Assembly (NCBI GenBank): GCA_964644835.1
Contig: CAZXXW010000002.1
Span: 1-63,412, forward strand
Source: an uncultured Anaerolineales bacterium
GTDB lineage: Bacteria; Chloroflexota; Anaerolineae; Anaerolineales; UBA11858
DNA length: 63,412 nucleotides
Reading direction: 5' to 3'
Below the pieces are notes generated by a model. It saw nothing but the letters and a program-made list of their open reading frames with translations. It was not told the DNA's origin and did not search any database. Of this stretch, positions 23,464 through 39,975 are shown piece by piece; the stretch's first letter is position 1; the number at the start of each line of letters is the position of its first letter. A program made the position numbers and the translations under genes.

Positions 23464-24339
23464 CTAAAAAGCCTTATTGCGATCGAGCAAAACCTTGCGG
23501 TGATGCTGCACCTGCCTCAGGGCATGCTGAAGCGCAGCGGGATCGCCGCGGTTGAGCGCGCCTTCCAGGCGGTTGAGCTGCTGCTCGAAGCGGGCCAAAG
23601 CGCCCAAGACGGCCTCACGGTTGGAGAGCAGAATCTCGGTCATCATCCGAGGGCCGCTGCCCGCTAGCCGCGCCGTGCTGCGGAATCCCGGTCCGATCAG
23701 CGAGGCCACTTCCGGGGGGGTGCCCAAAGCCAGGGCGGCTGAAATCAAGTAAGGCATGTGACTGGTCGCAGCGACGTAGGCATCATGTGTGTCGGGATTA
23801 AGCCACAACGGCGCTGCGCCGATCACTTCGATGATCTCTAAGGCAATGGAGCGAGCCCGGGGCGTCGTATTCGGCAGCGGGGTGAGCGCAAAAATGGCCT
23901 CTTGATATAAATTTGCTTCCGCGTGGGCAAGACCGGATGTCTCTTTCCCGGTCATGGGATGGCCACCCAGGGCGTCAAAGCGCGGCGGCAGGGATTCCAA
24001 GGCCTGGCAAACGGACACTTTGGCAGAGCCGAGGTCAAGCACCACGGCGGAATCGGGTTTCAAGGCGGGCAAACGCGCAATCCAATCCAAGATGGCGTTG
24101 ATCGGCGCGGCCAGGACGATCACGTTGGCCTCGGGCAGGATTTCCACAGGTTTCGGGCCGGCGCGATCGACCACCTGGCGCTCAAGAGCCAAATCAATCG
24201 TTTCAGGGTCAGGATCAAGCCCCAAACACGTCTGGCATTTCCCCCGCAGCGCCAGCGCCAAAGATCCTCCCATCAACCCCAATCCAATAATGGCAACGCG
24301 GGCTTCAGACAATCCAAAGGGAGGGTTTTCGCTATGCAT
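23464..24339 (-). CDS. tyrA: prephenate dehydrogenase
   Basis: ATG at 24339 (MHSENPP..VAIIGLGLMGGSLALAL Rossmann motif), 8-nt overlap with the aroF stop. Confidence 0.85.
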   Translation of the reverse strand: MHSENPPFGLSEARVAIIGLGLMGGSLALALRGKCQTCLGLDPDPETIDLALERQVVDRAGPKPVEILPEANVIVLAAPINAILDWIARLPALKPDSAVVLDLGSAKVSVCQALESLPPRFDALGGHPMTGKETSGLAHAEANLYQEAIFALTPLPNTTPRARSIALEIIEVIGAAPLWLNPDTHDAYVAATSHMPYLISAALALGTPPEVASLIGPGFRSTARLAGSGPRMMTEILLSNREAVLGALARFEQQLNRLEGALNRGDPAALQHALRQVQHHRKVLLDRNKAF

Positions 24340-25366
24340 GGAGCAATTTTGTGCACACAGAACGACCCACAGCCTCGGCAATCGCCCGCACTTGACTGAC
24401 CATCTCGGCGAAGCGTTCTGGCTTGAGCGATTGGCCGCCATCAGAGAGCGCTTCTTCGGGCCGGTTATGAACCTCCACGATCAAGCCGTCTGCGCCCGCG
24501 GCAATGGCGGCCCGAGCAATAGCATTGACATACTCCCAATGGCCGGTGCTGTGGCTGGGGTCGAGGATCACGGGCAGGTGCGTCTTTTGTTTGAGAGCGG
24601 GGATGGCGTTGATGTCGGTAGTGTTGCGGGTGGCCTGGGTGAAAGTGCGGATGCCCCGCTCGCACAAGACCACTTTTTGGTTGTTGTGCGAGAGAATGTA
24701 CTCCGCAGCGAGCAGGAATTCGTCCAGGGTGGCGTTCATCCCCCGTTTCAACAAGGCGGGCGCCTGACTCTCGCCGACAGCGTGGAGCAGGGAGGTGTTC
24801 TTCATGTTACGGGAGCCAATCTGGAGCATGTCGGCATACTGCAGGATCAGGGGAATCTGATCGGGCGATAACACCTCGGTGACGATGGCCAATCCTGTGG
24901 CTTCGCGGGCCTCGGCCAAAATCTCCAGGCCATCCTCGCCCAAGCCTTGGAAGGAGTACGGCGAGGTGCGCGGTTTGAAAGCGCCGCCGCGCAACACCGT
25001 CGCTCCCGCTTCTCGCACGGCATGAGCGATCTCAAGCATCTGGGTGCGGCTCTCCACCGAGCACGGCCCGGCGATGATCACAATCGGTGTCTCGCCAAAG
25101 CGGACGCCATTGAGGGGCACGACCGTATCTTGCACCGAAAACTCGCGCGAGGCCAGCTTGTAAGGTCGCGAGACGCGCACCACCCGATCGACGAAGGGCA
25201 TTAACTTGAAGGCGTCCTGGTTGATCTGGTGCACATCTCCGATGATGCCGACAATGGTGCGCTCCTGACCCTGGGAAACATGGGCGGTGGCACCATAGGC
25301 TTCGACTTGTTTTGTGACCGTATCGATCTCCTCTTGACTTGCATGGGCTCGCAAAATGATGATCAT
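24332..25366 (-). CDS. aroF: 3-deoxy-7-phosphoheptulonate (DAHP) synthase, type I-beta with N-terminal regulatory domain
   Basis: N-terminal roughly 70-aa ferredoxin-like domain, then IIAGPCSVES..GAFKPRTSPYSFQGLG..DPSHSTG. Confidence 0.9.
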   Translation of the reverse strand: MIIILRAHASQEEIDTVTKQVEAYGATAHVSQGQERTIVGIIGDVHQINQDAFKLMPFVDRVVRVSRPYKLASREFSVQDTVVPLNGVRFGETPIVIIAGPCSVESRTQMLEIAHAVREAGATVLRGGAFKPRTSPYSFQGLGEDGLEILAEAREATGLAIVTEVLSPDQIPLILQYADMLQIGSRNMKNTSLLHAVGESQAPALLKRGMNATLDEFLLAAEYILSHNNQKVVLCERGIRTFTQATRNTTDINAIPALKQKTHLPVILDPSHSTGHWEYVNAIARAAIAAGADGLIVEVHNRPEEALSDGGQSLKPERFAEMVSQVRAIAEAVGRSVCTKLLHA

Positions 25367-25387
25367 AAGATAAACTCCTCTTTTTTG

Positions 25388-25750
25388 TCAGGATAATTCC
25401 GGGCGGAGACAATGGGCAGCTTTCAAATAAATATGTTGAACTTGGTCTGGAGAGAGATCCGTGTTCCAATGGATTAAAACACGAATACACCTGCGCAGGC
25501 TGCCGGGCACGGGAATCTCACACGCGCACATCAACGGGACGTGGTGCCATCCTAACTGCCGGGCGGCCTGAGCGGGATAAGCACCGGTCAAATCTTCGGT
25601 GACGGTAAAGAAAACACTGGCAATGTTGTCGGGTTCCAAATTGGAATTTTCTTCTTGCAATTTTAACAGTAACTCGCGAGTCGCCGCGAGAATCGCTTCG
25701 GGAGTATTTGCCTCGGCGACGGTGGCGCCGCGAATACCAACCATTTTCAT
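25388..25750 (-). CDS. aroH: chorismate mutase, AroH class
   Basis: MKMVGIRGATVAEANTPEAILAATRELL; about 120 aa. GGAGG lies 6 nt upstream. Confidence 0.85.
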   Translation of the reverse strand: MKMVGIRGATVAEANTPEAILAATRELLLKLQEENSNLEPDNIASVFFTVTEDLTGAYPAQAARQLGWHHVPLMCACEIPVPGSLRRCIRVLIHWNTDLSPDQVQHIYLKAAHCLRPELS

Positions 25751-25761
25751 AATCCACCTCC

Positions 25762-25797
25762 AAAAATAAAAAACGCCAGGCCGTCGGCCTAGCGTTT
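25762..25797 (-). terminator. attenuator terminator of the aro operon leader
   Basis: Minus strand AAACGCUAGGCC-GAC-GGCCUGGCGUUU followed by UUUUAUUUUU, abutting the aroH RBS. Confidence 0.7.
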
Positions 25798-25825
25798 CGT
25801 TTCAATTCTCGTGTGATTTTTTTCG

Positions 25826-25912
25826 TCACATGCGCTTAAACACCGCCAACGGCACCCTGGGGAGGCTGCCAAAATAAAAAAAGAAGGAAAAAAAGCGGGT
25901 GTTAGGTATCAT
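25826..25912 (-). CDS. Phe/Tyr-rich leader peptide (28 aa)
   Basis: Hand translation gives MIPNTRFFSFFFYFGSLPRVPLAVFKRM*. Too short for the ORF track. No obvious SD sequence. Confidence 0.6.
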   Translation of the reverse strand: MIPNTRFFSFFFYFGSLPRVPLAVFKRM

Positions 25913-25941
25913 GTTTGTGACTTGGTTTACAAGCTGGCGAG

Positions 25942-25970
25942 ATTATAGTGTAATCCAAGGGTTGGGTCAA
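25942..25970 (-). promoter_or_regulatory. sigma-70-like promoter of the aro leader
   Basis: Minus strand TTGACC (25970-25965), 17 nt spacer, TATAAT (25947-25942). Confidence 0.6.
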
Positions 25971-26090
25971 GCAACTTTCGAGCATTTTTTTCTCTTTTTT
26001 TATGCACTGCCTCAAACGATGACAAAACTCGCCTTTGAAACCAAGCGGCTTGGAGTATACTTTGGAAAAGATGAACACACGAGGTAATCT

Positions 26091-27746
26091 ATGACATTAG
26101 ATGATCAAAAAAAACGTTGGGAAGAAGAAACCCTGAACCCAGCTTTAAACCGTTTTTCCGAGCGGAAAAGCGAATTTCGAACACCATCGGGGCTTCCGTT
26201 ACCGCGGCTGATGATTCCGCCCGAGGAGAGCCGCGACTACGAACAAGACCTGGGCTTCCCGGGTGAGTATCCCTTCACCCGCGGCGTGTACCCGAGCATG
26301 TACCGCGGCCGCCTTTGGACGATGCGCCAATACGCCGGATACGCCAGCGCCGAAGAATCCAACGCCCGTTACCGTTACCTGCTCGAGCAGGGCCAGACCG
26401 GGCTCTCGGTCGCCTTCGATTTGCCCACCCAAATCGGCTACGATGCCGACGATCCGATCGCAACCGGGGAAGTCGGCAAAGTGGGCGTGTCGATCTCGTC
26501 GCTGGATGACATGGAAACGTTGTTTGACGGAATCCCCCTCGAGCGAGTCTCGACCAGCATGACCATCAATGCCCCGGCGGCGATCTTGTTGGCCATGTAC
26601 GTCGCCGTGGCCAAGCGTCAAGGTGCCGAGATCAGCAAGCTGCGCGGCACGATCCAGAACGACGTGCTTAAAGAGTACATCGCCCGCGGGACGTACATCT
26701 TCCCGCCCAAGCCGTCCATGCGTCTGATCACCGATGTGTTCCAATACTGCCAGACCGAAATCCCCTCCTGGAACACGATCAGCATCTCCGGCTACCACAT
26801 CCGCGAAGCGGGTTCCACTGCCGTGCAGGAAGTCGCGTTTACGCTGGCAAACGGGATTGCCTACGTGCAGGCCGCGATCGACGCCGGGCTGGATGTGGAC
26901 AAATTCGCCCGCCAGCTTTCCTTCTTTTTCAACGCCCACAATAATTTCCTCGAAGAGATCGCCAAATTCCGCGCTGCCCGGCGGCTGTGGGCCAAGATCA
27001 TGCGCCAGCGGTTTGGCGCCGAGAATCCCCGCTCGTGGATGCTCCGCTTCCACACCCAGACGGCTGGGTCTACGCTGACGGCCCAGCAACCCCAGAACAA
27101 CATCGTCCGGGTGGCGCTGCAAGCCCTGGCTGCCGTCTTGGGAGGGACGCAATCGTTGCACACCAACAGCATGGACGAGGCCCTGTGGCTGCCTACTGAG
27201 CAATCGGTCCAGGTGGCGCTGCGCACCCAGCAGATCATCGCCCATGAATCCGGCGTCGCCGACAGCGTTGATCCCCTCGCCGGGTCTTACCTGATCGAGG
27301 AGCTCACCGATGAGATCGAAGAACGAGCAAGCGAGTATATCGAGCAGATCGACGAGATGGGCGGGGCCCTCGCCGCAATCGAACACGGTTTCATCCAGAG
27401 CGAAATCCAAGACGCGGCCTACCGCTACCAGCAAGCGATCGAAGGAGGGGAACAGATCGTCGTCGGGGTGAACAAATACGCCTCCGACGAGGAGCTTGAC
27501 CTCGAGCATCTCAGCGTCGATCCCGCTATTGAAGCAGCGCAACGCGCCCGTCTGAAACAACTACGGGGCGAACGCGACGGCGACCGGGTCAATGCCATCC
27601 TGACCGAACTCGAATCCGCCGCCCGCGGCAGCGATAACTTGATGCCATTGTTGATCGAAGCCGTTGAAAACGAGATCACCCTGGGCGAAATTTGCGCCAT
27701 CCTGCGTGATGTCTGGGGAGAATACGAGTCCAAAGCATGGCTATGA
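26091..27746 (+). CDS. methylmalonyl-CoA mutase-family large (catalytic) subunit, no B12-binding domain
   Basis: [57 protein letters not shown]. Ends after the TIM-barrel part. Confidence 0.9.
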
Positions 27747-35667: not shown

Positions 35668-35836
<169 letters not shown>

Positions 35837-39937: not shown

Positions 39938-39975
39938 AAAACTCCTGAGCGGTTAGGTGCTCAGGAGTTTTTTTA
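39938..39975. terminator. intrinsic terminator (rnj; usable from both strands)
   Basis: AAAACTCCTGAGC-ggttaggt-GCTCAGGAGTTTTTTT. Confidence 0.7.

Follow-up and report, generated by a model that had tools for sequence, protein, structure and literature searches.

A probable phenylalanine- and tyrosine-sensing leader-peptide attenuator of an aroH-aroF-tyrA operon, and its relatives in Chloroflexota

The closest functional precedent for the element described here is aroR-aroF of Corynebacterium glutamicum, in which a Phe-Tyr-Phe leader peptide precedes an operon starting with the gene for 3-deoxy-D-arabino-heptulosonate 7-phosphate (DAHP) synthase (Neshat 2014, J Biotechnol 190:55; see also PMC11802643, PMC4046766 and PMC7356990). 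In PMC11802643, ribosome stalling under Phe limitation is described as raising transcription, and Tyr is reported to be without effect. In the enterobacterial systems pheL-pheA and pheM-pheST, a short open reading frame (ORF) with a run of Phe codons is combined with a pause/anti-antiterminator hairpin, an antiterminator and a terminator (PMC3082878). The present analysis concerns a stretch of 63,412 nucleotides from an uncultured Anaerolineales bacterium (Chloroflexota; contig CAZXXW010000002.1), which as a whole is called the window. The region upstream of its aroH-aroF-tyrA operon (positions 25762-25970, minus strand) is very probably a ribosome-mediated leader-peptide transcription attenuator, sensing charged tRNA-Phe and tRNA-Tyr and controlling these three genes.

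The likeness to C. glutamicum aroR, a functional one documented in the literature, lies in a leader with both Phe and Tyr codons in front of a DAHP synthase operon. In addition, the leaders described here mostly have no Shine-Dalgarno (SD) sequence and in this resemble corynebacterial ones, as attenuator leader peptides of Corynebacterium can lack a ribosome-binding site (RBS) (Morbach 2000, cited in PMC4046766). Unlike the system of C. glutamicum, a member of the Actinomycetota with three regulatory codons, the present leaders have 5-8 of them, and the operon starts with aroH and includes tyrA. A list drawn from the Merino database in 2005 (PMC1173090) places putative attenuators of unspecified kind before the aroA(I-beta)>tyrA operons of, among others, Thermus and Bacteroides, and a survey of leader genes in 2016 left Chloroflexi aside for lack of genomes (PMC4833913). 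A literature search on attenuators in Chloroflexi and Anaerolineae yielded no relevant description. A preliminary description of the locus, made from its letters alone, took attenuation of an aro operon to be undescribed in such a genome. This stands for Chloroflexota, for which none was found described; an F/Y leader on an aro operon is already known from C. glutamicum aroR-aroF (PMC11802643 and PMC4046766).

The leader consists of the following elements, in the order of transcription:

25965..25970, minus strand: -35 hexamer TTGACC, of a promoter with a 17-nt spacer and an 11/12 match to the consensus
25942..25947, minus strand: -10 hexamer TATAAT of the same 11/12 promoter, ending 29 nt before the leader ATG
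25826..25912, minus strand: leader ORF of 28 codons plus TGA, with its ATG at 25912, reading MIPNTRFFSFFFYFGSLPRVPLAVFKRM* on this strand (asterisk, stop)
25871..25894, minus strand: regulatory codons 7-14, TTT TTT TCC TTC TTT TTT TAT TTT, for F F S F F F Y F
25850..25871, minus strand: hairpin B, UGGCAGCCU-CCCC-AGGGUGCCG, from the minimum-free-energy fold, covariation and, for its outer stem, RNAalifold
25838..25853, minus strand: 5' strand of the antiterminator (segment C), with the core GCCGUUGGC at 25853-25845 and the extension GGUGUUU at 25844-25838
25812..25830, minus strand: tentative spacer hairpin UGUGA-CGAAAAAAA-UCACA across the leader stop codon, from predicted folds
25771..25797, minus strand: intrinsic terminator AAACGCUAGGCC-GAC-GGCCUGGCGUUU, with 12-bp arms and a GAC loop
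25762..25773, minus strand: U-tract UUUUUUAUUUUU, the expected premature 3' end

The promoter (25970-25942), the ORF with its codon run and the terminator with its U-tract (25797-25762) had all been placed at these coordinates in the preliminary description, which had missed hairpin B (25871-25850). TTGACC-17-TATAAT is the top-scoring promoter-like site in the 5 kb scanned, with matches counted over the 12 sigma-70 hexamer positions. From its spacing to the -10 hexamer only, we infer a transcription start near 25935. Directly before the -35 hexamer there is an A-rich tract, cataaaaaaagagaaaaaaatg (25975-26003, minus strand), a possible UP element. In the run of codons 7-14, seven out of eight specify Phe or Tyr. 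The 3' strand of hairpin B shares the first 4 nt of the antiterminator strand, and in the predicted folds this hairpin acts as an anti-antiterminator, an element of the 1:2 type. The terminator begins 28 nt downstream of the leader stop codon (13 pairs, of which 7 G-C, and a 3-nt loop in the terminator scan), and its U-tract runs directly into the aroH RBS GGAGGUG (25761-25755). Its region 25797-25780 doubles as the 3' strand of the antiterminator, with the core GCCGACGGC at 25788-25780. Earlier credited with 15 bp, the pairing of segment C (25853-25838) with this region amounts to 16 bp (9 + 7, with a 2-nt bulge) at -20.9 kcal/mol, an energy that no more than 5 out of 300 shuffled 5' strands attain. 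The leader measures about 150 nt from ATG to U-tract and folds at -55.5 kcal/mol (z = -2.5).

A chance origin of this arrangement is excluded. Among the 525 ATG mini-ORFs of 10-60 amino acids in the window, the leader ORF is the only one with at least 6 aromatic residues in any 8 (it has 7), and this level is reached by 9 of 5000 dinucleotide shuffles of the region. The window holds 31 strong terminator-like hairpins; only the one at this locus follows a mini-ORF with such a codon run.

The element is conserved. A genome scan with AroF resulted in 80 loci, the closest of which (96% identical) belongs to a metagenome-assembled genome of an uncultured Anaerolineales bacterium. The gene order aroH-aroF(-aroF)-tyrA is common to about 25 Chloroflexota loci in this set, and 18 of them have an ORF of 23-33 codons with an F/Y-rich core upstream of aroH, for example MSSKAIRFFFFSFYYFYGSPTEAVGGA, with a terminator (-14 to -23 kcal/mol) that follows 23-37 nt past the stop. 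When metagenomes were scanned with an AroH alignment, 80 further loci were obtained, and 65 of the 73 with enough upstream DNA contain leader and terminator. A covariance model, R1, for which 74 distinct leaders were used, detects a single copy in the 63-kb window (104 bits), one copy per leader-bearing Chloroflexota genome locus, and zero matches in the genome-scan loci labelled as other phyla. Furthermore, it adds a locus without aroH in which the leader stands directly before aroF (L011) and six metagenome copies, one before aroF-aroH-tyrA (L112) and five truncated at contig ends. In all, about 90 Chloroflexota loci (with labels mostly of Anaerolineae) combine the mini-ORF, the hairpin, the antiterminator strand and the terminator, always immediately 5' of aroH, aroF or pheA and on the same strand. 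Both the F/Y run and the two helices, whose conservation the preliminary description had proposed as a check, are kept at these loci, with covariation.

What is conserved in the leaders, at the level of the peptide, is solely the run of aromatic codons, in which UUY and UAY interchange. The leaders are composed of 14% Tyr, 12.6% Phe and 1.2% Trp, with on average 3.3 Phe and 3.65 Tyr codons per leader and at least one of both in each; one Trp codon occurs in 23 out of 74. None of the 74 aligned leaders has a stop in the aromatic frame, whereas stops interrupt the two alternative frames in 42 and 51 leaders. The N-termini are variable, and what is conserved at the 3' end, GCCGUUGGYGGYGCUUAAG, is a motif of the RNA and not of the peptide, being read in two frames: most leaders have AVGGA*, others LPLVALK*. 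The window copy and L001 read PLAVFKRM*, the loop of the hairpin just before the motif differing by 1 nt. These features bear on the idea that the mini-ORF encodes a functional hydrophobic micropeptide on a transcription unit of its own, whose adjacency to aro genes would have no regulatory meaning. A strong promoter, an ORF and a terminator do resemble a stand-alone small gene, and trans-acting attenuator peptides are known, such as peTrpL (PMC7298713). However, outside the aromatic run the peptide is unconserved at both ends, the element never departs from its position directly before aroH, aroF or pheA, and the conserved complementarity between the 3' end of the ORF and the terminator has no role in a plain small gene. 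Moreover, the promoter scan detected no separate promoter-like site for aroH between the terminator and its start. A micropeptide gene is the least probable of the explanations considered, with hardly any likelihood.

The leader architecture also occurs in other settings. Locus L015 contains a second, divergent F/Y leader, MKNVQAYSFYFYFAAYGFISMLRAGRD (1362-1445), before the prephenate dehydratase gene pheA (1581-2432), just upstream of its aroH leader and with its own TTGACA-17-TATAAT promoter and terminator. In L022, L158 and L091, pheA comes straight after another gene, which is why no leader was found before it. There is also a third leader subtype (...YFAYYYAYAKASGKLLHARR...), upstream of aroH in L096, L108, L113, L129, L119, L155 and L157. 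About 20 nt before the stop, its ORF contains a strand GCUGCUUCACGC that is complementary to the 5' arm of its own terminator (GCGUGGAGC...). The third subtype is an independent solution, with different sequences and the same logic. In some of its loci, pheA lies between aroH and aroF.

Structure statistics were obtained from a MAFFT alignment of the 74 sequences, with slid helices and 500 shuffles as controls. Hairpin B and the terminator together have 89% of their cells paired, versus 36-53% for slid helices, and no shuffle out of 500 equals them on any measure; 15 of their 20 pairs change on both sides, with 142 double-sided-change cells. The terminator helix alone has 94% of cells paired and 8 of 12 pairs changing on both sides. 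RNAalifold independently recovers the terminator and the outer stem of hairpin B. For the antiterminator as a whole, 79% of cells are paired versus 31-50% (89% for its core), with a covariation score of 0.171 versus 0.147 (0/500) and 37 double-change cells versus 20 (1/500). Covariation thus supports the terminator and hairpin B strongly, and the antiterminator moderately. Compensatory antiterminator changes are clear in L013 (CUGCUGGU with GCCAGCAG) and L002. In addition, cognate duplexes of segment C with the terminator have a mean of -19.8 kcal/mol versus -18.0 for non-cognate ones, which is equalled by none of 5000 permutations. Hairpin B opens at the final aromatic codon, and its 3' strand makes up the first stretch of segment C; in the antiterminator, segment C pairs with the top of the terminator 5' arm, the loop and the top of the 3' arm. 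A spacer hairpin of at least 4 bp between stop and terminator is present in 67 of 74 relatives (mean z -1.8). The tentative outer helix A:A', formed by CCGCUU 5' of the aromatic run and AAGCGG spanning the stop codon, is weak (59% of cells paired versus 31-51%; 2/500 for the score), partly because MAFFT poorly aligns the variable N-terminal region.

Nascent leaders (n = 74), cut after the 3' strand of the antiterminator, were folded with a 30-nt mask for the ribosome. Scoring the antiterminator as formed at 6 or more pairs gave the following:

No ribosome: antiterminator in 25/74
A-site on the first aromatic codon: antiterminator in 70/74
A-site on the middle aromatic codon: antiterminator in 71/74
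A-site on the last aromatic codon: antiterminator in 60/74
A-site on the stop codon: antiterminator in 3/74

This three-state pattern across the family is the logic of enterobacterial pheA and pheST attenuation, as had been suggested for the locus; coming from modelled folds, it speaks for geometric consistency rather than for function. In 63 out of 74 leaders, the distance from the opening base of the C core to the start of the stop codon is exactly 15 nt. This fixed spacing makes sense only if a ribosome reads the ORF and covers C on terminating. The window copy and L001 depart from the family norm: their stop lies 25 nt from the start of the C core, 10 nt further 3', and the 7-bp extension of the antiterminator is specific to these two. 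With this spacing, a terminating ribosome covers only the 7-bp extension. In the window copy, a stall with the A-site on codons 11-16 leaves 8-9 of the 9 core pairs and abolishes hairpin B, while a ribosome on codons 17-28 blocks the antiterminator. The masking logic of the preliminary description therefore holds in the family, where stalling frees the antiterminator in 60-71 of 74 leaders and the stop position blocks it in 71, but its own example, the window copy, has only the extension masked.

A near-consensus promoter TTGACN-17-TAnAAT precedes nearly all of the 72 leaders with upstream sequence. In 41 of them, the gap between the end of its -10 box and the leader ATG is 8-12 nt, and in 30 it is exactly 10 nt (an example of such a short distance is L018, 2350-2380); an SD-like tetramer occurs in only 6. 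Given this short gap and the lack of an SD, translation probably proceeds, for most leaders, from 5' ends that are very short or leaderless. The window leader belongs to a minority with a longer spacing (29 nt), likewise without an SD.

Such ORFs without an SD would also fit a switch that does not involve the ribosome, in which a riboswitch, a T-box or an RNA-binding protein chooses between terminator and antiterminator and the mini-ORF is incidental. The alternative helices exist irrespective of translation, and homologous operons are under T-boxes: L036 (2354-2584, before aroH-aroF) and L061 (1523-1747, before pheA-aroH-aroF-tyrA), both Clostridia/Bacillota loci, have T-box leaders that are detected by the T-box model at 118 bits each. 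At the window locus, by contrast, no T-box (RF00230) matches at E up to 10 in 25000-26800, nor at the gathering score window-wide, and that candidate was rejected. No known Rfam family matches the locus at E up to 10; the best sub-threshold ones, Phe_leader and ar9, are driven by the terminator. The only Rfam family above its gathering score in the whole window is an S-adenosylmethionine (SAM) riboswitch elsewhere. Against a ribosome-independent switch also argue the short distance from ATG to U-tract, the frame that is open in every aligned leader, with the F/Y(/W) codon run as its only conserved coding feature, and the fixed position of the stop codon relative to C. Such a switch has a small chance of being correct, somewhat above that of the micropeptide.

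It could also be imagined that the hairpin controls translation or mRNA stability, or acts via Rho, instead of terminating transcription intrinsically. In the window, the U-tract directly adjoins the aroH SD, as such a role would have it. However, the distance from hairpin to aroH start ranges from 16 to 195 nt in relatives, so that closeness to the RBS is no conserved feature. A canonical terminator form, with a GC-rich stem and a U-tract after it, is seen in nearly all copies, and the hairpin is unpaired with the aroH SD in the predicted fold. This explanation is improbable, be it marginally less so than a switch without the ribosome.

For a ribosome-mediated attenuator, the following course of events is proposed. 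Transcription would begin near 25935 from the near-consensus sigma-70 promoter, and a ribosome would translate the 28-codon leader. When Phe- or Tyr-tRNA is scarce, it would stall in codons 7-14, and its footprint would cover the 5' strand of hairpin B, best from codon 11 on, leaving segment C single-stranded. Segment C could then pair with 25797-25780 (the terminator 5' arm, the loop and the upper 3' arm) as this region emerges from the polymerase. The terminator would thereby be prevented, and the polymerase would continue into aroH. When Phe and Tyr are plentiful, the ribosome would cross C and reach the stop codon during synthesis of the terminator. Behind the transiting ribosome, hairpin B would re-form and the terminator fold, and transcription would end in the U-tract at about 25770-25762. 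Given the displaced stop of the window copy, termination under replete conditions would here owe less to masking by a ribosome at the stop codon than to the passage of the ribosome and the renewed folding of hairpin B.

Several points weigh against this attenuator. The window copy is one of the 3 exceptions among 74 in which a ribosome on the stop codon leaves the antiterminator standing (8 of 9 core pairs), and its nascent RNA forms the antiterminator in equilibrium folding even when free of ribosomes. Its full-length RNA folds the terminator in every ribosome state (P = 0.99). With the terminator prevailing at equilibrium whatever the state, control has to be kinetic, as in classical attenuators. 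Equilibrium folding was therefore rejected as proof of a switch in the window copy, as its antiterminator forms without a stall, and only the family-level pattern is informative. Furthermore, the high conservation of segment C keeps the covariation of the antiterminator modest; of the five covariation measures, two, both count-based, are not significant (162/500 and 56/500), and kinship among the aligned sequences inflates the shuffle tests. The leader ORF in the window lacks an SD on a 5' untranslated region of probably some 22 nt, and it is from the sequence that we infer its translation. The support as a whole comes from sequence, conservation and folding. Finally, transcription-translation coupling is, to our knowledge, uncharacterised in Chloroflexota.

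How the family compares with the other known systems can now be considered. It shares with enterobacterial pheL-pheA and pheM-pheST the short ORF with its Phe run and the sequence of pause/anti-antiterminator, antiterminator and terminator. The Rfam family Phe_leader (RF01859) was considered and rejected, with 23.2 bits versus a gathering score of 55 (E = 0.53) and a match consisting of the U-rich run and the terminator. Unlike in pheL, Tyr codons are as frequent as Phe codons and a third of the leaders have Trp, genes of the common pathway and of the Tyr branch are regulated, the antiterminator strand pairs with the terminator apex and not only with its 5' arm, and most members lack an SD, with some 10 nt between the -10 box and the ATG. 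In common with E. coli trpL, the family has, in silico, the terminator without translation or with complete translation, and the antiterminator upon a stall. It differs from trpL in the amino acid sensed, in having no sequence similarity, in an equivalent of region 1 that starts at the last aromatic codon, and in a stop inside or just past region 2. With the T-boxes of Firmicutes it has in common the gene context and purpose as well as a choice between terminator and antiterminator by tRNA charging; T-boxes, however, bind uncharged tRNA directly by RNA-tRNA contacts, without a leader peptide. The element is a well-supported new family, absent from Rfam, of a known kind of regulator, with a mechanism that is classical and not new.

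The genes downstream of the leader are the following:

25750-25388 (with RBS 25388..25761), minus strand: aroH, AroH-type chorismate mutase (CM_1, PF07736, E 1e-43)
24332..25366, minus strand: aroF, DAHP synthase of type I-beta carrying a ferredoxin-like regulatory domain at its N-terminus (PF00793, E 1e-79; PF18152, E 9e-24)
23464..24339, minus strand: tyrA, prephenate dehydrogenase (PDH_N and PDH_C)

The domain matches, which for aroF are DAHP_synth_1 (PF00793) and an FXD domain (PF18152), bear out the three functions assigned earlier. The sensed amino acids match the regulated genes, as chorismate mutase, DAHP synthase and prephenate dehydrogenase make the chorismate-derived precursors of Phe and Tyr. 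aroH has a strong SD of its own. In its longest form, the tyrA ORF shares 110 nt with aroF (24332-24441), and the true start is probably the ATG at 24339, overlapping the aroF stop (ATGCATAG). This overlap is consistent with a single operon and implies translational coupling. The operon is flanked upstream by a divergently oriented methylmalonyl-CoA mutase gene and beyond tyrA by a convergently oriented gene; pheA is absent from the window. The window has a single aroF copy, with the N-terminal FXD domain. Two tandem aroF paralogues stand behind one leader in L007, L018, L019, L025, L030, L037 and many metagenome loci; they may be isoenzymes differing in feedback sensitivity. Elsewhere in the window, the SAM riboswitch (RF00162, 88.4 bits) lies at 35671-35779 on the plus strand and is followed by a terminator-like hairpin (35800-35823). 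A perfect hairpin with U-tracts on both strands (39942-39967), located between convergent genes, looks like a bidirectional terminator.

It is tempting to combine these observations into a broader picture, that of a multivalent aromatic sensor with leaderless translation, a Chloroflexota-wide regulon and a leader RNA acting in trans, although as a whole it is rather doubtful. The sensor may respond to Phe and Tyr, and in a third of the members also to Trp. The ribosome may load at the extreme 5' end as soon as this emerges, which would enforce coupling without an RBS, and the aromatic regulon may span both aroH-aroF-tyrA and pheA. By analogy, the abundant terminated leader RNA of about 170 nt could act in trans as well, as rnTrpL does in Sinorhizobium.

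Within the literature searched, this is the first well-supported family of leader-peptide attenuators for Chloroflexota (Anaerolineae). Classical attenuation, which needs translation to keep pace with transcription, probably operates in this phylum. Its roughly 90 members, its defined structure and the covariance model make the element a candidate Rfam family, which would improve the annotation of aro and pheA operons in metagenomes. It also provides a natural comparison, with the same operon under a T-box in Firmicutes and under a leader peptide in Chloroflexota and Corynebacterium, while the SD-less and possibly leaderless ORFs and the RNA motif read in two frames are test cases for the evolution of attenuators. 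The finding may be unsurprising to specialists. The Anaerolineae, however, are abundant and poorly cultivated, with almost no characterised gene regulation, and the element offers an entry point to regulation and to transcription-translation coupling in this group.

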